The notes: generated from the sequence alone by a model not told the origin. Shown: positions 3,754 to 25,184, counted from the stretch's first letter. The stretch: 56,019 nucleotides of DNA from a virus (IMGVR_UViG_3300036402_000107:1-56019), one strand, 5' to 3'. A program made the numbers and translations.

Positions 3754-5178
3754 ATGCCGACGCACAAGACCGTCAAGGTCGGCGGAAAGCGAAAGCAGTT
3801 CCCGGTCGCGTACTTCTGGAAGGACGTAATCGGCGTCGGCAAGTTCCGCCACCCGATCACCGGCCAGACGTTCGAAGTCGACGAGAAGAGGATCGACGGC
3901 TGGGTCAGGAAGTACGAGAAGATGCGTGAGCAGGGGATCGAGATCCCGACGCCGGTAGACCACAGCGACAACGCCGAAGACAATCGGGGTTTCGTGGTCG
4001 GTGCCCGGCGTGTTGGTGATAAGCTTCAGCTTCTCCACCAAGTGATCGGTGAGGACGGAGCACGGCTGGCGTGCCGCAACCGTTGCTCCGTCTACATCGA
4101 CCCCGAGTTTATGGACGAGCACGGCAAGAACTGGGGCGAGGCGATCGCCCATTCGGCATTCACACCCAAACCGGTCATCAGCGGACAGGGCGAGTTCGTC
4201 CCGTTCGCGGCAAGCCGGGCTACCGGTTCGGGTAAGACACGGAAAGTCCCGGTGTTCTACCTATCGCGTTCGAAGGAGTCAGACATGGCAGCGAAGATGA
4301 AGCCCGGTAAGCGTCGCGGGAAGAAGGGCAACAGCGAGAGCAAGCTCTCGCCCAAGAAGGCCAAGAAGGTGCGAAAGCTCCTCAGCATCGAGGACGACGA
4401 GGAGGTCACCGACGAGGAACTCCTCAAGCGTCTGGCGTCCCACCCGGCGATCGCCAAGGCCGCGAAGAGGGCGGTCTCGGGCGACGACGAGGAAGAGGAC
4501 GACGACGATGAACTCGTCGATGAGGAGGAGGACACGGACGAGGACGACGCCGACGACGAGTCGGACGAGGACGACGAGGAGGAGGACGACGACGCGGAAG
4601 CCGACGACGAACTCGAGGAGGACGACTCCGACGAGGACGCCGACGACGAAGAGGACGACGAGGACGAGGACGACACCAAGAAGAAGAAGCGGAGCAAGAA
4701 CCGCAAGCGTATCCTCGCCGAGCGGAGCAAGAACCGCAAGCGGGAACTCGTGGGCAGCATCGGCTCCCTGTCCCGCGTCCCCAAGGGTGCTGACCCCACG
4801 ACCCTGACGCTCCTGCGTCGCTCCTTCAAGACCGAGCGGCAGAAGCTCATCGCCAAGGGTGCCATCACCCCGGAGGTCGATCAGGCTCTCTGCGACCTGC
4901 TGTTCAGCGGCAAGCAGTTCAACGGGCTCGCCCTCTCGCGGATGCCCGGCTCCGAAGACCCGCTCGCCTTCCGCCTGTACAGCATCCTGAAGAAGAACAA
5001 GCCGGTGCCGATGAACGGCGGACGCACCGGGAATCAGGAGGCGATCGCCCTTGGCCGCAAGGTCGTCGGCAGGAACGGCGGCGTGCTCTCCCCGCGTGAC
5101 CGCGAGGCCCTCCGCGAGGAAGTCCGGGCACAGATGGGCGTCGCCTCCAAGAAGAAGGCCAAGAAGGACGACGAGTAA
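3754..5178 (+). CDS. Capsid maturation protease/scaffold (Mu gpI-like)
   Basis: Lies before decoration and capsid genes. 'PTPVDH...NRGFV', 'CSVYIDPEF...AIAHSAFTPKPVI'. Long acidic tract. Start uncertain (3685 or 3754). Confidence 0.7.
   Translation: MPTHKTVKVGGKRKQFPVAYFWKDVIGVGKFRHPITGQTFEVDEKRIDGWVRKYEKMREQGIEIPTPVDHSDNAEDNRGFVVGARRVGDKLQLLHQVIGEDGARLACRNRCSVYIDPEFMDEHGKNWGEAIAHSAFTPKPVISGQGEFVPFAASRATGSGKTRKVPVFYLSRSKESDMAAKMKPGKRRGKKGNSESKLSPKKAKKVRKLLSIEDDEEVTDEELLKRLASHPAIAKAAKRAVSGDDEEEDDDDELVDEEEDTDEDDADDESDEDDEEEDDDAEADDELEEDDSDEDADDEEDDEDEDDTKKKKRSKNRKRILAERSKNRKRELVGSIGSLSRVPKGADPTTLTLLRRSFKTERQKLIAKGAITPEVDQALCDLLFSGKQFNGLALSRMPGSEDPLAFRLYSILKKNKPVPMNGGRTGNQEAIALGRKVVGRNGGVLSPRDREALREEVRAQMGVASKKKAKKDDE
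4285..5178 (+). CDS. Nested in-frame scaffold protein (internal start)
   Basis: AAGGAG at 4273-4278 six nt before in-frame ATG 4285, just after the protease-like domain, as in Mu gpI/gpZ. Confidence 0.6.
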   Translation: MAAKMKPGKRRGKKGNSESKLSPKKAKKVRKLLSIEDDEEVTDEELLKRLASHPAIAKAAKRAVSGDDEEEDDDDELVDEEEDTDEDDADDESDEDDEEEDDDAEADDELEEDDSDEDADDEEDDEDEDDTKKKKRSKNRKRILAERSKNRKRELVGSIGSLSRVPKGADPTTLTLLRRSFKTERQKLIAKGAITPEVDQALCDLLFSGKQFNGLALSRMPGSEDPLAFRLYSILKKNKPVPMNGGRTGNQEAIALGRKVVGRNGGVLSPRDREALREEVRAQMGVASKKKAKKDDE

Positions 5179-18655: not shown

Positions 18656-18907
18656 ATGAGCAAGAAGGGCTTCACCGTGCCGGTATGGCAAAAGAAACAC
18701 GCACCGGTCTGCGACTGCGGTAACGTCATGTCGCCCTGCATGGTGACCGTGGACGACGAGGGCAGGAAGCCGGAGCGTCTGCCGATGTGGCTCTGCCTCG
18801 AGCCGTCCCACGTGTGCACGGCCTCGCTCTACGTCCGGGCGATCCCCGACGACGAGCTGGAGGAGCAGTGGCGGACGCCCGCTTATAAACGAAAGCGGGC
18901 TTTATAA
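18656..18907 (+). CDS. Small Cys-rich hypothetical protein
   Basis: AGGAG upstream; CxC and 'WLC....HVC' suggest Zn binding. Confidence 0.55.
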   Translation: MSKKGFTVPVWQKKHAPVCDCGNVMSPCMVTVDDEGRKPERLPMWLCLEPSHVCTASLYVRAIPDDELEEQWRTPAYKRKRAL

Positions 18908-18946
18908 TCGGGGGGACTTGCGTCAACAGACCCCTTGTGGTATAAT
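18883..18946 (+). promoter_or_regulatory. Early sigma70 promoter P1 with upstream palindromic box
   Basis: TTATAAA-N11-TTTATAA (18883-18907); TTGCGT(18918)-17-TATAAT(18941) with extended TG. Confidence 0.85.
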
Positions 18947-19009
18947 GCGTCTTCGGTCGGGTTTCCCGATCGGCCGATCCGGCGGGTTCCGGGTTGAAAG
19001 GACGAGACC

Positions 19010-19435
19010 GTGCAGACGATCAAGACACTCCAAGGACAGTTTTTCCTCCTCAGCAACTTCGCCCCGACTCCCGTCAGCTTCGAGGGCGTCCTCTTCCCGA
19101 CCGTTGAACACGCCTTCCAAGCCCAGAAGACGCACGACAACGCCGAGCGTCGGCGGATCGCGAGCCTCCCCAAGCCCGGTCAGGCGAAGCACGCCGGGAA
19201 GCGAGTCAAGCTCCGGGAGGATTGGGAGCAGGTCAAGGTCGGGATCATGAAGGCGATTCTCGTCGCCAAGTTCGAGCAGAACGCAGCAGCACGGGACGTC
19301 CTTTATCGAACCGGCGACGCCCGGATCGAGGAGGGCAACCTTTGGAACGACACCTTTTGGGGCGTCAGCCTTAAGACCGGGAAGGGCAAGAACACCCTCG
19401 GGCTCCTCCTCGAAGAGATCCGCAACACGCTTTGA
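19010..19435 (+). CDS. NADAR (YbiA-like) family protein
   Basis: 'LSNF', 'FPTVEHAFQAQK', 'LREDWEQVK..IM..ILVAKF.QN', 'EGN.W.DTFWG', 'GKN.LG.LL..IR'. Confidence 0.9.
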   Translation: MQTIKTLQGQFFLLSNFAPTPVSFEGVLFPTVEHAFQAQKTHDNAERRRIASLPKPGQAKHAGKRVKLREDWEQVKVGIMKAILVAKFEQNAAARDVLYRTGDARIEEGNLWNDTFWGVSLKTGKGKNTLGLLLEEIRNTL

Positions 19436-19498
19436 GCCGAAACGCCCGAGAGGGCGTCTGCAGCGATCGACCCCGCTGCACTGACGAGGCAGGTTCCT
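19436..19498 (+). ncRNA. Type II hammerhead ribozyme HH1
   Basis: GCC-GAAAC-GCCC-GAGA-GGGC-GTC^(19458)-TGCAGCG-loop-CGCTGCA-CTGACGA-GGC-AGGTTCCT; complete catalytic core. Confidence 0.93.
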
Positions 19499-19515
19499 TG
19501 ACTCAGGAGACACCG

Positions 19516-19836
19516 ATGATTCTCGAGATCCAGAAGTGGCAGCAGGACGTGCAGGCCAAGAACCTGCACCGGGCGGACGTCGTGCACAAGTTCAGCGGCA
19601 TTAAGGTCGGCTTCATGACGCAGCAGACCTACAAGTGCAAGGGCGGTCTGGGAGCGACGTTCAAGATGTACGCCCTGCTCTCGAACGGCACCGACACCAC
19701 CTACGTCTGGTCTTCCTCGATCAACGGCGGCGACCTCACCCACGAGAACGAGCAGTGTGCTCGCCGGTGCGGGCTGGAGATCCTGACCCGCTACGTCGAG
19801 AAGCACGGCGTGCCCGGGGTTAAGCAGATCGCTTGA
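19516..19836 (+). CDS. Hypothetical protein (gene B of cassette 1)
   Basis: AGGAG 19505-19509, ATG 19516. Confidence 0.65.
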   Translation: MILEIQKWQQDVQAKNLHRADVVHKFSGIKVGFMTQQTYKCKGGLGATFKMYALLSNGTDTTYVWSSSINGGDLTHENEQCARRCGLEILTRYVEKHGVPGVKQIA

Positions 19837-19861
19837 CACCAACGCGTTCGTGTGGTAGAAT
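19833..19861 (+). promoter_or_regulatory. Early sigma70 promoter P2
   Basis: TTGACA-17-TAGAAT with extended TG. Confidence 0.8.
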
Positions 19862-19916
19862 CCGTGGTTGGGGGTCTGACCCGGCAGGTTCCGGGGTTCG
19901 AGAGGATCGGTGCTCT

Positions 19917-20180
19917 GTGTTCTTTGTCTTCGCTGAAGATCTCTGCTCCTGCCTCGTCGGCCCGTTCGAGACCCGCGAGGAGGCGGAGGGTCATCTGGCT
20001 TGGTGCCGTGACGAGCGGCACGACGGTGCGACCATGGAGGTCGTGTCTCGGTTCATCGCCGAGCGTCTGTCGCCGGACATGACGATGACCCCCGCCCTAG
20101 ACCGGGCGTCCTCCCCCGTCGCCAGCGACGCCCTGCAGCCGTGGGACGACCTCGACGCGAACGGCCGTCAGGTCTTCTAA
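19917..20180 (+). CDS. Hypothetical protein
   Basis: Downstream of P2, GAGG upstream; 'VGPFETREEA' motif. Confidence 0.5.
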   Translation: MFFVFAEDLCSCLVGPFETREEAEGHLAWCRDERHDGATMEVVSRFIAERLSPDMTMTPALDRASSPVASDALQPWDDLDANGRQVF

Positions 20181-20208
20181 ACCGAACAACAACTTAACGA
20201 AGATCAAG

Positions 20209-20245
20209 AGACCCCTCCCCGTGACCCGGGCGAGGGGTCTTGCGT
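20209..20245 (+). terminator. Hairpin/terminator before P3
   Basis: AGACCCCTC / GAGGGGTCT stem. Confidence 0.45.
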
Positions 20246-20301
20246 TATAAAGGGCGTCCGCGTCTATACTACTTGCGTTAACGCAAAAGCTGTGGTATAA
20301 T
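20245..20301 (+). promoter_or_regulatory. Early sigma70 promoter P3 with palindromic box
   Basis: TTATAAA-N11-TCTATAC (20245-20269); TTGCGT(20273)-17-TATAAT(20296), extended TG. Confidence 0.85.
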
Positions 20302-20364
20302 CCTCTTTCGGTTGCGGATTCGCAACCGGCCGATCCGGCGGTGAGTCCGGACTGAAAGGACTAG

Positions 20365-20769
20365 ATGATGATTCGCCAGTTCATTCCGATCGGCTTCGAG
20401 TTCCCCGGTGGCTACACTTGGTGCGTCGACGACGAAAAGAAGGAATCGCACGCCGTCTACCCTGACGGGTCGTCCAAGCCCGCGACTGAGTCTTACTCCG
20501 GTGACTTCCTGTCCTTTGCCTTAGATTCAGTCGATCAAGAAGTCTGGCTGGAGCTGACCCGCCCTCTCGTCTGGATCGACACCGGCCTCGAAGGCCAGCC
20601 GTACGTCGAGGTCTACGAGGTCTTCGTCTGCACCGCCGTGATCGACGGCGTGAAGGTGGCCCGGTACTCGAACCCGGAGAAGGACGAAATGGTCGAGGTG
20701 CCCGTGAGCGAGATCCGCACCGGTCGCGGGGTCTTCGCCGACAAGAACGTCTTCGACTGCTCCAAGTAA
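20365..20769 (+). CDS. Hypothetical acidic protein (gene A of cassette 2)
   Basis: GAAAGGA SD then ATG; stop abuts HH2. Confidence 0.7.
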   Translation: MMIRQFIPIGFEFPGGYTWCVDDEKKESHAVYPDGSSKPATESYSGDFLSFALDSVDQEVWLELTRPLVWIDTGLEGQPYVEVYEVFVCTAVIDGVKVARYSNPEKDEMVEVPVSEIRTGRGVFADKNVFDCSK

Positions 20770-20833
20770 GCCGAAACGCCCGCGAGGGCGTCGAGCGAGG
20801 ATTGACCTCCCGCTCCTGACGAGGCAGGTTCCT
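20770..20833 (+). ncRNA. Type II hammerhead ribozyme HH2
   Basis: GCC-GAAAC-GCCC-GCGA-GGGC-GTC^(20792)-GAGCG(A)GG..CCCGCTC-CTGACGA-GGC-AGGTTCCT. Confidence 0.93.
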
Positions 20834-20852
20834 CCTGACGGAGAATGACGAG

Positions 20853-21251
20853 ATGACCATCACCCAGATCAAGCGGAAGCACAACCCCCATCAACCCGTG
20901 GGCCGCTGGATTCGCCCCGCGAAGCGGATGGCGATCTACCTCAGGGATCGCTTCCAGTGCCTTTACTGTGGTGCCGACCTCCACGGCGTCACCGACCCCC
21001 GCCACATCCAGCTCGACCACAAGACCCCGGTGAGCAAGGGAGGCTCGAACCTCGAGCACAACGTCTTCACGACCTGCATGCGTTGCAACTGCTCGCGGGG
21101 ATCGAAGCCCTTCCGGTCGTTCGCGACCACGGGGGCGAAGCAGCGGGCCAAGCGTCAGCTCTCGCTCTCGCTCAAGCCGTACCTCGCCCTCGCCAAGGCC
21201 ATCTGCTCGGGGGCGGTCAGCAGGGAGCAGGCTCTCAGCGAGATCCGCTAG
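20853..21251 (+). CDS. HNH endonuclease
   Basis: 'RDRFQCLYCG...LDHKTPVSKGGSN...NVFTTCMRCNCSRG'. Confidence 0.85.
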   Translation: MTITQIKRKHNPHQPVGRWIRPAKRMAIYLRDRFQCLYCGADLHGVTDPRHIQLDHKTPVSKGGSNLEHNVFTTCMRCNCSRGSKPFRSFATTGAKQRAKRQLSLSLKPYLALAKAICSGAVSREQALSEIR

Positions 21252-21296
21252 CGTCCGTGAAACGACCGGGCACCCCCGGGGTGATGAAAGGTGACG

Positions 21297-21449
21297 ATGA
21301 TCTACCGAATCCTGCAAGCTCGCTTCGGCCGTTGGGGGCGTCGCCTCGCCCTCCTCTGCGTCGCAATCTGGGTCTTCACGCTCCTCTGCTGCCTGCTGGC
21401 CTTTGGCTGGCAGCTGTTAGGGCGTTATAAAAGCGGCGGGGCTTTATAG
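21297..21449 (+). CDS. 50-aa single-pass membrane peptide (not in the ORF track)
   Basis: TGAAAGG SD; MIYRILQARFGRWGRRLALLCVAIWVFTLLCCLLAFGWQLLGRYKSGGAL*. Confidence 0.5.
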   Translation: MIYRILQARFGRWGRRLALLCVAIWVFTLLCCLLAFGWQLLGRYKSGGAL

Positions 21450-21489
21450 CAGGCAGGGGATTGCGTAGGCTTACAGCCTGTGGTACAAT
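21425..21489 (+). promoter_or_regulatory. Early sigma70 promoter P4 with palindromic box
   Basis: TTATAAA-N11-TTTATAG (21425-21449); TTGCGT(21461)-17-TACAAT(21484), extended TG. Confidence 0.85.
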
Positions 21490-21556
21490 GCGTCCTCAGT
21501 CGTGGGATCACGACTGGCCGACCCGGCGGTGAGTCCGGGATGAAAGGACGTGCGAC

Positions 21557-21748
21557 GTGAGCGAGACGAACCTCCCCAAGTGGATCGAAGACCTGAAGGC
21601 GGACTTTATCGAGTGGAGCGGCGGCTTCGGCCCCGAGGAGTGCGAGGTCGATGAGATCACCAAGTACCTCGAAGTCAGCGAGATCGACGAGGACGACGAT
21701 CGATTCGGTGCCCTCTGGGATCTCCACAACGGCGAGCTTGAAGACTGA
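21557..21748 (+). CDS. Small, very acidic protein (gene A of cassette 3)
   Basis: GAAAGGA SD, GTG start; 63 aa, D/E-rich; stop abuts HH3. Confidence 0.65.
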   Translation: MSETNLPKWIEDLKADFIEWSGGFGPEECEVDEITKYLEVSEIDEDDDRFGALWDLHNGELED

Positions 21749-21812
21749 GCCGAAACGCCCGCGAGGGCGTCCGACCGAGACTAACCCCCGGTCGCTGATG
21801 AGGCAGGTTCCT
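21749..21812 (+). ncRNA. Type II hammerhead ribozyme HH3
   Basis: GCC-GAAAC-GCCC-GCGA-GGGC-GTC^(21771)-CGACCG..CGGTCG-CTGATGA-GGC-AGGTTCCT. Confidence 0.93.
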
Positions 21813-21833
21813 CGATCTCGAAAGGATCACGTC

Positions 21834-22991
21834 ATGGTTGCAGGAAAGATCACCCCCGCTGGTCACATGGTCAAGGGTCTCGACGGCGTTGAGCGTTTCG
21901 TCGCCCACGAGGCCGATCAGGACGGCCCGGTCACCGAGACGACGAAGACCCCGCGTCTCGCCCCCAAGAGCAAGGCCGAGAAGAAGGCCGACAAGGCCGC
22001 GAAGAAGGGCAAGCCGGTCGTCGAGACCGTCGACGCCGGTGGCGGCATCTTGGTCGACGTCGCGGACAGCAAGCCCGCGAAGAAGGCCAAGAAGGTCAAG
22101 ACCGCTGGCCCGCTCTCGACCGAGGTCTCCAACCCGGAGCAGGAGGAAGTGAAGAAGACGACGTGCAACCACGGCGTCAAGTCCAACGAGAGCATCCTCT
22201 GGGAGATCGCCGACAAGTACAGCAACGCCTGTGCGACCCGGATCTCTGACCCGTTCACGGGCGAGAGCACCGGCTTCGCGATGGTGCACGGCTGGGACGG
22301 TGCCGCCGAGCAGTGGCACTCCGTCCGCCCGGTGAGCGACCGGTACAAGCCGATCCGGACACAGGATCTCATCGAGATCGCCGTCGAGCGTCTGCAGGGG
22401 ACGCCGCTGATGGCCGAGAAGATCCGCACCGACCGCTTCGGCACTTCGCTCGAGGTCAAGATCCCGATCAACCGCCCGATCGAGATCGGCAAGGGCGTCG
22501 CGTTCGATCAGGGTCACCCGTGGACTCGCCACGGCGAGCACACCAAGCGGGACGTGCTCTACCCGGTCGTGAACATACGTAACGCCTACGACGCCACCTC
22601 CTCGATCATCGTCGACGTCGGGCTGTTCCGGATGATCTGCAGCAACGGCATGAAGATCATGCTCGCGGGAGTCGGTGCCAAGGCGATCCACACGAAGCAC
22701 GAGGTCGCCCGCGTCATCGAGACCATCGCCAAGCAGGAACTCACCGGCGACCTCGACTTCGTCCGCAAGCTCTCGGTCGCGAAGCTCGACGTCAAGGACG
22801 TCGCGAAGATCATGGGCGACCGCGTCCCCGAGAAGTGGCAGAAGGAGCTAGCGGAGTACGCCAAGCTCGGCGGGAACACCGCTTGGTCGTGGATGAACGG
22901 CCTGAGCTACCTGAGCACCCACGAGTATAGTCTCCTCCGCTCGCGTCAGCTTGACCCGATCATGACGGCGATTCAGAAGCTCGCCGCCTAG
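21834..22991 (+). CDS. DUF932-like protein with Lys-rich N-terminus
   Basis: 'VSDRYKPI', 'NAYDATSS....GLFRMICSNGM', 'IHTK', 'TAWSWMN..S...TH'. Confidence 0.75.
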   Translation: MVAGKITPAGHMVKGLDGVERFVAHEADQDGPVTETTKTPRLAPKSKAEKKADKAAKKGKPVVETVDAGGGILVDVADSKPAKKAKKVKTAGPLSTEVSNPEQEEVKKTTCNHGVKSNESILWEIADKYSNACATRISDPFTGESTGFAMVHGWDGAAEQWHSVRPVSDRYKPIRTQDLIEIAVERLQGTPLMAEKIRTDRFGTSLEVKIPINRPIEIGKGVAFDQGHPWTRHGEHTKRDVLYPVVNIRNAYDATSSIIVDVGLFRMICSNGMKIMLAGVGAKAIHTKHEVARVIETIAKQELTGDLDFVRKLSVAKLDVKDVAKIMGDRVPEKWQKELAEYAKLGGNTAWSWMNGLSYLSTHEYSLLRSRQLDPIMTAIQKLAA

Positions 22992-23073
22992 GGCCGAGAC
23001 CGCCGACCACGGACGCCCTCCCGACGCGGAGGGCGTCCTGCTCGTTGGTCTCAGACCAGAAGGGAAGCAGGAG

Positions 23074-23346
23074 ATGGACAAGACGAACAGCCACCGCCAC
23101 AAGTGTGCAGTGTGCGGCTTCGTTTGGCGTCACGCGAACGAGTCCCCCGGGCGTGACAACGACGTGGCCCACACGTGCCGGTGCGGCAACCAGCAGTTCT
23201 TCATCTACCGGGGCGAGGACAAGGCACAGGTCGCGACGTGCGGGCGTCCCTGCAGGCAGGGCGACCGACCCGTCCTCGCCCCCGGCGTCGTGTATCAAGC
23301 TTACTTCGGCGACCTGCACCCCGACAACAAACCCGGCGACCTCTAG
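23074..23346 (+). CDS. Small Zn-finger-like hypothetical protein
   Basis: AGGAG SD; 'HKCAVCGFVWRH...HTCRCG'. Confidence 0.55.
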   Translation: MDKTNSHRHKCAVCGFVWRHANESPGRDNDVAHTCRCGNQQFFIYRGEDKAQVATCGRPCRQGDRPVLAPGVVYQAYFGDLHPDNKPGDL

Positions 23347-23385
23347 CCGACGACCCGGCGTGACCCGGGCTGAAAGGAACGCAAC

Positions 23386-23877
23386 GTGAACGAAGCACAG
23401 AAGAAGATTCTCGAGAAGCACCCCGGAGCCCGGCTGCAGAAGCTGGTCTACGTCGGCGTCCGACCCGGCAACAAGACCAAGCGGGTGTACGGCTACGTCA
23501 AGGTCAGTGACGACGACCTCAAGTCAGGTAACCCGGTGGTCAATGCCGCACAGGCGATGTACTGGAAGAAGAGCCTCTACCCGGGCACGGCGGGGACGGT
23601 CATCGAGATCGTCATGGAGGAGGGGGCGGACGGCGTCTCGATCTGGAAGGCCGTAAACTACGTGGGCCGCTGGCCGAACCGCGAGCAGTGCGTCGCGTGG
23701 CAGGCGGAGCACGACGAGACGGTGGCCGACCTCGACAGCAAGAAGGACGCGATGCACGACTCGATCATCGAGACGCTGGCACCGGTCGCGAAAGCCTACC
23801 GACACTCGAACCGAGCGGGACGGGCCGTGCTCCTCGCCAAGGTCATCCGGTACCTTACGGCCTCGTCCTTCGACTAG
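23386..23877 (+). CDS. Hypothetical protein
   Basis: Preceded by a CCCGG/CCGGG hairpin and TGAAAGGA SD. Confidence 0.65.
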   Translation: MNEAQKKILEKHPGARLQKLVYVGVRPGNKTKRVYGYVKVSDDDLKSGNPVVNAAQAMYWKKSLYPGTAGTVIEIVMEEGADGVSIWKAVNYVGRWPNREQCVAWQAEHDETVADLDSKKDAMHDSIIETLAPVAKAYRHSNRAGRAVLLAKVIRYLTASSFD

Positions 23878-23935
23878 ACGCAACGCGTCCCGACCCCCCG
23901 ACGTACAACCCGGCGAAGACGACCGCTCTCGGGGA

Positions 23936-24004
23936 TTATAGAGAGCGGTCTTCTTTATAACGCAACAGGAAGTACTTGCGTTGACGACCAGCCTGTGTTA
24001 TAAT
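23936..24004 (+). promoter_or_regulatory. Early sigma70 promoter P5 with palindromic box (overlaps a terminator-like hairpin)
   Basis: TTATAGA-N11-TTTATAA (23936-23960); TTGCGT(23976)-17-TATAAT(23999), extended TG. Confidence 0.85.
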
Positions 24005-24070
24005 GCGTTCTCGGTCGGGGTTTCCGACCGAGCCGACCCGGCGACGAACCCGGGATGACGGAGACGACCA

Positions 24071-24376
24071 ATGACCAACGAGACTTTCAACGCCGCCTTT
24101 TCGCAGAAGTCCGCCTTTGCGGCCATCCGCTCGCTCGGACTGACCGTCAAGAAGACTGAGGACGGCGAGATCCGAGTGAACTTCAAGGGTCACAGCGAGG
24201 AGACCGCCTACTACACCACCGACCTGAAGGACGCTTACGACACCGCCCGTTCGATGGCTGCCCTCAAGGCGAGCAGCAGCCCCAAGAAGAAGTGTCACCT
24301 TTGCGGCGGCACCGACCACACCTCCTCGCAGTGCGAGTTCACCGGCGAAGCCGAAGCCACCGACATGAATCGCTGA
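24071..24376 (+). CDS. Hypothetical protein with C-terminal CCHC zinc knuckle (gene A of cassette 4)
   Basis: 'CHLCGGTDHTSSQC' = CX2CX4HX4C. Confidence 0.7.
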   Translation: MTNETFNAAFSQKSAFAAIRSLGLTVKKTEDGEIRVNFKGHSEETAYYTTDLKDAYDTARSMAALKASSSPKKKCHLCGGTDHTSSQCEFTGEAEATDMNR

Positions 24377-24412
24377 AACGAGACGACCCGCCCGTGGGTC
24401 ATGAAACGGGAA

Positions 24413-24475
24413 GCCGAAACGCCCTGCGGGGCGTCGGGCGGGAATGACCTCCCGCCCCTGATGAGGCAGGTTCCT
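24413..24475 (+). ncRNA. Type II hammerhead ribozyme HH4
   Basis: GCC-GAAAC-GCCC-TGCG-GGGC-GTC^(24435)-GGGCGGGA-ATGACC-TCCCGCCC-CTGATGA-GGC-AGGTTCCT. Confidence 0.93.
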
Positions 24476-24497
24476 CGACTCAAGAACGGAGGCCCCC

Positions 24498-25184
24498 GTG
24501 GCCAACAAGCTCGCAGCTGCTATCGCGTTCCGTCAGTACGCCAAGACCAAGACCCGCAAGGTCGGTGACGCCGTCGACGACCCGATCGCCGACAAGCTCG
24601 CCAAGGCCCAGTCCGCCGACGACATGGCCAAGCTCGCCATCGAGTCGGGCATCCCCAAGGACGTTGTCGAGGAGAAGGCCAAGAAGGCCCCGAACCCCGG
24701 TCAGTTCCGCATGACCATCGGGAACCTGATCCGTGGCGTTTACGCCCGGGTCGAGAAGTACCACACCCTCACGGGCGGGCGGGTCGATGCGGCGGACGTC
24801 GGGACGAAGAAGCTCTTTCAGGCGAAGATGGCGGAGTACCGCAAGGCCAACCGCCCCGTGAAGGACGGCCCGAAGCCCTCGACTGGGAAGAAGAAGACCG
24901 AGACCGCCAAGAAGGGCGGCAGGGTCGCTGCCTCCAAAAGCGGCAAGGGCGACGCTGCGGCGACTCCCAAGGGAGCACCCAGCAAGTCCGAGGCCGCTGG
25001 CCGTGGCAAGGGAAAGAAGGGTGGCGACGGTTCTGCCAAGAAGTCCCGCTGGCAGCGGAACGCCAGCAACAAGAAGGGCAAGCCCGCTGCTGACGCTGCT
25101 GACGGTGCGGGCGTGGGCGAGCAGGGCGAGCAGGAGGGCGGGCAGTCCAGTCTTGCCGAGGCAATTGCCGAAGCCAACAGCTGA
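24498..25184 (+). CDS. Hypothetical protein with Lys/Ala/Gly-rich basic tail
   Basis: GGAGG SD, GTG start; 'PNPGQFRMTIGNLIRG' core. Confidence 0.7.
   Translation: MANKLAAAIAFRQYAKTKTRKVGDAVDDPIADKLAKAQSADDMAKLAIESGIPKDVVEEKAKKAPNPGQFRMTIGNLIRGVYARVEKYHTLTGGRVDAADVGTKKLFQAKMAEYRKANRPVKDGPKPSTGKKKTETAKKGGRVAASKSGKGDAAATPKGAPSKSEAAGRGKGKKGGDGSAKKSRWQRNASNKKGKPAADAADGAGVGEQGEQEGGQSSLAEAIAEANS

Follow-up and report, generated by a model that had tools for sequence, protein, structure and literature searches.

A conserved CC(A)UY element in the tail of four phage type-II hammerhead ribozymes and its complementarity to the ribozyme core and to the next Shine-Dalgarno sequence

Type-II hammerhead ribozymes of phages have been known since 2011. 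Perreault et al. 2011 (PMC3088659) describe prophage and phage ribozymes with the same core as those reported here, an open stem II and a mutation-tested pseudoknot between loop I and the bases that follow stem II; several of these hammerheads flank single phage genes and were proposed to process long transcripts into gene-length mRNAs. Here we analyse four such ribozymes (HH1 to HH4) in the complete IMG/VR virus record IMGVR_UViG_3300036402_000107, a soil phage whose 56,019 bases are called the window below. The subject is CCUY, a short element that ends the 3' tail of each ribozyme, between a preceding gene (gene A) and the Shine-Dalgarno sequence (SD) of a following one (gene B), and that a first-pass annotation had taken for an anti-SD. 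The ribozymes, the pseudoknot and the flanking of single phage genes by multiple hammerheads are already in print; the element, CC(A)UY in its general form, the abutment of the gene A stop codon and the one-to-one link of ribozymes to promoter cassettes are added here.

The terms "Shine-Dalgarno", "ribosome binding" and "stop codon" are absent from the main text of PMC3088659, and none of its four uses of "tail" or four of "alternative" concerns a second tail element pairing with the core. Open-access papers and bioRxiv likewise yielded no SD link, stop-codon link or core-pairing tail for bacterial or phage hammerheads, a negative that excludes the figures and supplements of Perreault 2011, which could bear on it. 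The engineered hammerhead and twister switches of Felletti et al. 2016 (PMC5052635) also place an anti-SD and an SD beside a self-cleaving ribozyme to control bacterial translation initiation; there, the SD is paired with the anti-SD in a stem of the ribozyme, whose activity raises expression through SD accessibility. From this stem layout we infer that cleavage puts the two strands on different fragments. The same logic is inapplicable to the present ribozymes because their SD is part of none of the three stems and shares a fragment with the tail. In the ribozyme of hepatitis delta virus (HDV), flanking sequence acts through alternative pairing, and synthetic RiboJ-type insulators join a ribozyme to an added hairpin and so set the next SD in a defined context, a resemblance that is a lead only. 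In work on attenuators of the HDV antigenomic ribozyme (PMC2396440), flanking non-ribozyme sequence is reported to alter both the extent and the rate of cleavage, as is considered here, although the ribozyme class and the host differ and the flank is upstream. Finally, Lopez-Galiano et al. 2026 (PMC13725137) place a ribozyme before an open reading frame (ORF) in fungal and plant RNA viruses, where cleavage matters for translation; these are type-I hammerheads in 5' untranslated regions with eukaryotic cap-independent initiation, and SD/anti-SD logic plays no part there.

Four hammerheads with a shared two-part tail

HH1 to HH4 all lie on the plus strand and are, by their sequence, type-II hammerheads (Rfam RF02276) for which self-cleavage is predicted (Table 1). 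Three of them pass the gathering score of 37 bits; HH3 is just under it and was accepted because it is a paralogue of the other three copies. The conserved core (CUGANGA and GAAA, with a cleavage triplet that ends in H17 behind the A15.1-U16.1 pair) is present in all four as CUGA(C/U)GA, GAAA and the GUC preceding the cut, loops cap stems I and III, and stem II is open and made of the 3 bp GCC/GGC. Stem III has the form CGCCC-N4-GGGCG and stem I has 5-8 predicted pairs in isolated folds. All four copies end alike, in CUGAYGA-GGC-A-GGUU-CCUY. The phage has no close relative among deposited phages, as the eight records that matched cover at most 3% of the query each, seven of them in the NADAR gene and one (Streptomyces phage VieEnRose) in the HH4 region. 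One sequencing run, of DNA and possibly from the source sample, contains the stretch; no RNA run is listed for it.

The first part of the tail, GGUU, is the pseudoknot strand, and in each of the four copies the bases right after stem II can form at least 4 bp with loop I. The UU of the string UUCCU, which had been quoted as the start of an anti-SD, is part of this strand. Relatives were collected by scanning viral contigs with three patterns: the 5' half of the ribozyme only (at least 118 loci), the core with GGC and AGGUU (at least 120 loci, many of them non-ribozyme) and the core with an extra U (at least 117 loci, 73 of which parsed as hammerheads). Loci were kept only when they parsed as two hairpins plus a UH cut site, the others being dropped before counting, and all counts given here are among the matches listed. 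Clustering at 80% identity gave 104 clusters, 101 of them from outside the window; an earlier round had given 79 relative clusters for the pseudoknot test and 77 with an upstream ORF. Of the 79 clusters, 83.5% can form a pseudoknot of at least 4 bp, versus 56% after swapping of tails.

Other partners for the second part of the tail were considered and rejected. An extended pseudoknot, in which CCUC would pair with the 5' side of loop I, has a match in HH2 only (GAGG-AUU-GACC), and reading of the sequences gave no consistent partner in HH4 or in the relatives L152, L164, L175 and L129. As for the end of gene A and the stem III loop, GCC has no GAGG upstream of it, and stem III has a variable loop.

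Complementarity of CCUY to the ribozyme core

The second part of the tail, CCUY, stands immediately after the GGUU pseudoknot strand in 11 of the 29 non-window clusters with diverged stems I and III, compared with an expectation of 0.3% (binomial p 4e-21), and directly 3' of GGUU in 15 of 30 after re-clustering. Its fixed position in clusters whose stems have diverged indicates that the element is under selection and is more than a local copy. The opposite view would be that nothing beyond the pseudoknot is at work and that CCUY is functionless sequence, inherited with a cassette that was copied four times. The four copies are indeed 67-79% identical over 66 nt and share the same tail, and the core-tail energies of the window are unremarkable against shuffles (z -1.72, -0.94 and -0.68 for HH1, HH3 and HH4). 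We nevertheless hold this view to be very improbable, since the 15 clusters come from unrelated viral contigs with differing stems I and III and since the change from CCUY to CCAU(C) coincides exactly with the additional U in the core.

This last change is the clearest sign of the partner of the element. When the core carries an extra U (CUGAYGA-U-GGC, reading GAUGG), the tail reads CC-A-U(C), so that the additional U has its counterpart in an additional A. Among clusters with a GGUU pseudoknot, CCUY and CCAU are found in 15 and 0 of the 30 clusters of the GGC class and in 1 and 5 of the 24 of the UGGC class (Fisher p 3e-4). With any pseudoknot, all 101 clusters being counted, the corresponding numbers are 18 and 0 of 52 and 1 and 6 of 49 (Fisher p 4e-5). 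CCAU is unable to pair with GGAG, which points to G8-A9-G10.1-G10.2 (GAGG) of the ribozyme itself, and not to the SD, as the conserved partner. The idea that the tail is kept for the SD is thus not supported: the element tracks the core, and complementarity to the SD is lost in the CCAU(C) tails of the extra-U cores. The matched one-base insertions put the alignments of the GGC and UGGC classes out of register, and a single structure line cannot fit both.

In agreement with these counts, tails prefer the core with which they occur. The ribozyme's own core beat the same core with the U toggled by -1.25 kcal/mol in the GGC class (28 better, 13 worse, 11 equal, p 1e-4) and by -0.62 kcal/mol in the UGGC class (20, 5 and 24, p 0.0045). 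Over the 101 clusters, the 12 nt beside the pseudoknot formed a core-tail duplex of -3.25 kcal/mol on average, compared with -2.03 for shuffled tails (the native mean being reached by 0 of 100 replicates) and -2.67 for tails taken from other clusters (by 1 of 100). An energy of -5 kcal/mol or lower was found in 33 of the 101 clusters and in 7.9% of shuffles. Other relatives carry alternative tails that match the 3' half of the core, namely CGUCAG, AUCAG, CCGUCA, UCUCGCAG and CCCGUUA.

Each RNA was then folded up to 33 nt beyond the gene B start in two states, either with the ribozyme fold imposed (stem II forced, core and pseudoknot strand blocked) or as the free 3' product of cleavage. The minimum-energy folds of the 3' product lay the tail on the ribozyme's own CUGAYGAGG in HH1, HH3 and HH4 (Table 1), with tail-core pairing probabilities of 0.42, 0.13 and 0.89, respectively. 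When CCUY was replaced, holding the ribozyme fold cost 0.76 kcal/mol less on average (19 ribozymes, p 0.026), in keeping with a tail in competition with the active fold.

We propose, at roughly even odds (a probability of about 0.5), that CCUY is a strand that folds back on the ribozyme's own GAGG in a structure mutually exclusive with the active fold. The tail would then have two jobs. Its A-GGUU part is the known pseudoknot strand, which pairs with RACC in loop I and supports fast cleavage, and CCUY, together with GA(C/U)UCA in HH1 and HH4, would pair with GAGG in a hairpin with C-A-GGUU as its loop. Such a hairpin occupies two catalytic residues as well as two of the three pairs of stem II and leaves the pseudoknot strand in its loop, and it therefore excludes the active fold. 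After cleavage, the fragments would be held by the 3-bp stem II alone, and the 3' product should collapse to stem I and a "spent-core" hairpin, tidying the purine-rich, SD-like remnant of the core just upstream of the gene B SD. Before cleavage, this hairpin would represent an off-state of the RNA. The identity of the ribozymes, the pseudoknot complementarity, the co-variation of tail with core and the layout of the cassettes are shown here, and the fold that forms in cells and the purpose of the hairpin are inferred. If the core-clamping tail is true, natural hammerheads carry a built-in second conformer, which would be raw material for regulated or one-way cleavage.

Several results weigh against this proposal. 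With 25-nt tails, the family-wide excess of core-tail pairing over shuffles is not significant (mean z -0.14, p 0.25), and the signal is confined to the 12 nt beside the pseudoknot and to about one third of the clusters. No co-variation links N7 to the fifth tail base, the pair that adjoins GAGG, in the listed tails (A occurs with U7 in 4 and with C7 in 5). The GGC and UGGC ribozymes may be two clades and the switch from CCUC to CCAUC one or a few events, in which case the Fisher p values overstate independence. RNAfold scores neither the pseudoknot nor tertiary contacts, which limits what it says on how the active fold and the hairpin compete. Within the window, the tail-core probability is low in HH3, and HH2 has just the 4-bp GAGG/CCUC option in its core, its tail folding onto the SD instead. 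To these is added the lower SD accessibility of CCUY relatives, given in the next section.

Some further observations concern tails outside the CCUY class. A subclass that lacks the pseudoknot reads CUGACGAGGCCGUCAG, and its tail CGUCAG is the perfect complement of the core CUGACG (L012, L017, L044, L056, L069, L071, L076, L080, L088, L089, L092, L100 and L113); two relatives with U at core position 7 (L043 and L058) have (C)AUCAG as their tail instead. The hammerhead with the UCUCGCAG tail (L205 / L226) is followed by an apparent terminator-like hairpin and a U-run, with no SD or gene start next to it, as read from the flank and not from a terminator scan.

Complementarity of CCUY to the Shine-Dalgarno sequence of gene B

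The tail-SD pairings quoted in the first-pass annotation, and their coordinates, are correct in all four copies: UUCCU/AGGAG in HH1 (19494-19498 / 19505-19509), CUCC-UGAC-GGAG in HH2, UCCU/AGGA in HH3 and CCUC/GAGG in HH4 (SD at 24488-24492). The complementarity amounts to only 3-5 bp across the copies, or 4-5 bp in each as counted against a 4-bp minimum for an anti-SD. Although real, it is cheap, since 8-13% of the 6-mers of the window can form at least four contiguous pairs with each SD. Moreover, a string of the CCUC type pairs with an SD of the GGAG type by definition, and the SDs facing these tails are all purine-rich. The four matches out of four amount to about one observation because the tails are copies of one repeated element. 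The isolated tail-SD hairpins are weak, with energies of -3.4, -5.1, -3.4 and -4.0 kcal/mol in HH1 to HH4, compared with -7.8, -5.9 and -5.5 kcal/mol for the isolated tail-core hairpins of HH1, HH3 and HH4. A CCUC near a GGAG is not by itself evidence of a riboregulator.

The annotation had gone further and suggested that CCUY, as an anti-SD, masks the gene B SD and that folding or cleavage of the ribozyme, together with termination on gene A, releases it as a timer or coupling switch. Beyond the complementarity in all four copies, this finds support in HH2, where the tail-SD pairing probability was 0.78 in the ribozyme fold and 0.64 in the 3' product, and where replacement of CCUY by AAAA in silico raised the unpaired probability of the SD from 0.01 to 0.52 and from 0.11 to 0.74, respectively. 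By contrast, tail-SD pairing did not exceed 0.13 in the other copies (0.01 / 0.13 in HH1, 0.01 / 0.01 in HH3 and 0.01 / 0.00 in HH4, in the same order of states). Their SDs were unpaired with probabilities of 0.38 / 0.28, 0.75 / 0.73 and 0.11 / 0.11 with the native tail and of 0.36 / 0.33, 0.37 / 0.37 and 0.11 / 0.14 after the replacement. Tail-dependent masking is thus predicted in HH2 only and is missing in three of the four copies, HH1, HH3 and HH4 having no masking helix that dominates the predicted ensemble. In HH2, the folding model indicates that the tail probably damps translation of the HNH endonuclease gene, before and after cleavage alike.

The relatives bring further evidence on both sides. 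SDs are less accessible in CCUY relatives than in non-CCUY ones (median 0.37 vs 0.83 in the ribozyme fold, n=19 vs 15, p 4e-5; 0.26 vs 0.69 in the 3' product), and replacement of CCUY by AAAA across the CCUY class raised SD accessibility by 0.17 on average (p 0.036); this difference is, however, confounded by a G+C content of 0.53 in the CCUY class vs 0.40 (p 3e-4). Some relatives have tail-SD helices of 5-6 bp, as seen by reading the sequences (for example UUCCUC/GAGGAA in L215), and the abutment of the stop codon described below, to which the proposed coupling appeals, is family-wide. Conversely, some CCUY tails stand 30-36 nt from the SD (L145, L163), core-complementary tails occur without an SD (L205, L151), and the CCAU(C) of the extra-U class cannot pair with GGAG.

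The cut sites, at 19458, 20792, 21771 and 24435, are all 5' of both tail and SD, and so, instead of being placed on different fragments as in the engineered switches, the two remain together in the 3' product and cleavage cannot part them. Ensemble folding predicted no opening of the SD upon cleavage in any of the four copies, and in the CCUY class the median accessibility does not rise on going from the ribozyme fold to the 3' product. A switch of this kind is therefore unlikely, and the release of the SD by cleavage is not supported, while masking as such is predicted for HH2.

A three-way relay was also weighed, in which the active fold engages GAGG and leaves CCUY to mask the SD, and cleavage frees GAGG to capture CCUY and turn gene B on; in reverse, a 30S subunit on the SD would free GAGG and turn the ribozyme on. 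Both GAGG and the SD are complementary to CCUY, and in L142, L164 and L186 the tail-SD pairing fell from 0.51, 0.79 and 0.29 in the ribozyme fold to 0.08, 0.07 and 0.00 in the product, where tail-core pairing was 0.80, 0.91 and 0.74. This pattern, however, was found in 3 of 19 CCUY ribozymes and in none of the four window copies, and four ribozymes behaved in the opposite way (L175, L199, L214 and L215). The SD itself stays shut in L164 (0.19 to 0.23) and L186 (0.28 to 0.28), and such a relay is impossible for the CCAU-tailed class. We consider it improbable.

Under the proposal that CCUY folds back on the core, the complementarity of the tail to the gene B SD is a by-product, because GAGG is itself SD-like; a core-clamping tail, if true, would account for the anti-SD-looking sequence before the next gene. 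Tail-SD pairing would then dominate in HH2 only, where it would damp the HNH endonuclease gene constitutively.

Cassette layout, stop codons and neighbouring features

Each hammerhead belongs to a cassette with the order promoter-like module, leader hairpins, gene A, hammerhead, gene B, and cassettes and ribozymes correspond one to one (4:4). The promoter-like sequence TTGCGT-N17-TAHAAT has exactly four matches in the genome (18918, 20273, 21461 and 23976), compared with a chance expectation of 0.01. The position of the hammerhead after the first cistron of the cassette implies that cleavage would separate gene A from gene B on each transcript, and the distance from hammerhead to gene B start is 16-21 nt in each copy.

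The claim that the gene A stop codon abuts the ribozyme is borne out for HH1, HH2 and HH3, where the stop is at distance 0 from the 5' strand GCC of stem II, although not for HH4. It is also a trait of the family: in 47 of 77 clusters the upstream stop touches the ribozyme, with a distance of 0 in 24 and of -1, overlapping the G of GCC, in 23. The upstream stop lies at most 3 nt from the stem II start in 62 of 77 clusters (L005-L122 and others). A broader reading would make CC(A)UY a conserved switch arm of natural type-II hammerheads, paired either with the G8-A9-stem II strand of its own ribozyme or, where this strand reads GAGG, with the next SD. Ribozyme state and gene B initiation would then each report on the other, in a natural ribozyme-translation relay with the stop abutment as a second input, because a terminating ribosome would melt stem II; we regard it as distinctly unlikely. 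The contact with the stop codon and the presence of one ribozyme per cassette make the role of hammerheads in the design of phage mRNA directly testable.

Table 1. Coordinates of the ribozymes, tail elements, genes and promoter-like repeats in the window
Feature	Position	Strand	Remarks
HH1	19435..19499 with tail (Rfam match 19435-19498)	+	40.4 bits; stem II GCC 19436-38 / GGC 19488-90; GAAA 19439-42; stem III 19443-56; cleavage after C19458; stem I 19459-80; core CUGACGA 19481-87
HH2	20769..20834 (Rfam match 20769-20833)	+	37.9 bits; stem II 20770-72 / 20823-25; cleavage after 20792; stem I 20793-815; core 20816-22
HH3	21748..21813 (Rfam match 21748-21812)	+	36.4 bits, below 37; stem II 21749-51 / 21802-04; cleavage after 21771; stem I 21772-94; core 21795-801
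HH4	24412..24476 (Rfam match 24412-24475)	+	45.3 bits; stem II 24413-15 / 24465-67; cleavage after 24435; stem I 24436-57; core 24458-64
HH1 pseudoknot strand GGUU	19492..19495	+	partner GACC 19469-72, loop I
HH2 pseudoknot strand GGUU	20827-30	+	partner GACC 20804-07
HH3 pseudoknot strand GGUU	21806-09	+	partner AACC 21783-86
HH4 pseudoknot strand GGUU	24469-72	+	partner GACC 24446-49
CCUY element, HH1	19496..19499	+	CCUU
CCUY element, HH2	20831-34	+	CCUC
CCUY element, HH3	21810-13	+	CCUC
CCUY element, HH4	24473-76	+	CCUC
HH1 core-tail hairpin	19481..19506	+	CUGA/UCAG and CGAGG/CCUUG, loop CAGGUU, -7.8 kcal/mol
HH3 core-tail hairpin	21797..21817	+	GAU/AUC and GAGG/CCUC, -5.9 kcal/mol
HH4 core-tail hairpin	24459..24482	+	UGA/UCA and UGAGG/CCUCG, -5.5 kcal/mol
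HH2 tail-SD hairpin	20832..20843	+	CUCC-UGAC-GGAG, -5.1 kcal/mol
Gene A1, NADAR domain	19010..19435	+	stop TGA 19433-35 adjoins HH1
Gene A2, no family match	20365..20769	+	stop TAA 20767-69 adjoins HH2
Gene A3, 63 aa, no family match	21557..21748	+	stop TGA 21746-48 adjoins HH3
Gene A4, 101 aa, no family match	24071..24376	+	stop TGA 24374-76, 36 nt upstream of HH4
Gene B1, 106 aa, no family match	19516-19836	+	SD AGGAG 19505-09, ATG 19516-18
Gene B2, HNH endonuclease	20853-21251	+	SD GGAG 20840-43, ATG 20853-55
Gene B3, DUF932	21834-22991	+	SD AAGGA 21822-26, ATG 21834-36
Gene B4, no family match	24498-25184	+	SD GGAGG 24488-92, GTG 24498-500
Promoter-like module, cassette 1	18918..18946	+	TTGCGT-N17-TATAAT
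Equivalent promoter-like modules	20273-20301, 21461-21489, 23976-24004	+	
Promoter-leader repeats	18918-18972, 20273-20361, 21461-21549, 23976-24064		57-89 nt; each opens with TTGCGT-N17-TAHAAT and carries two leader hairpins

Other features were observed around the cassettes. A ribosome-site module, made of a CCGG...CCGG hairpin immediately followed by (A/C)UGAAAGGA (UGACGGAGA at 24037) and a start codon, occurs at six sites (18979-19012, 20335-20367, 21266-21299, 21522-21552, 23354-23388 and 24037-24073), all of them within the 18.9-24.1 kb region. The stretch from the gene A4 stop to HH4 (24377-24411) looks like a decayed module of this type, with a GACCC...GGGUC hairpin and AUGAAACGGGA, and HH4 may have been inserted between an older ribosome site and gene B4.

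The frames of B1 and B3 are open backwards through HH1 and HH3 (19432-19836 and 21651-22991), so that mechanical ORF calls cross the ribozymes; the true starts of these genes are likely the SD-linked ones at 19516 and 21834. A near-consensus sigma-70-type site, TTGACA-17-TAGAAT with TG ahead of the second hexamer, stands at the end of gene B1 (19833-19861), and a terminator-like hairpin (18877-18900) lies just ahead of cassette 1. Elsewhere in the window, a GAC/GAG-rich run of 12 overlapping repeat copies (4390-4701) would encode a very acidic Asp/Glu stretch.

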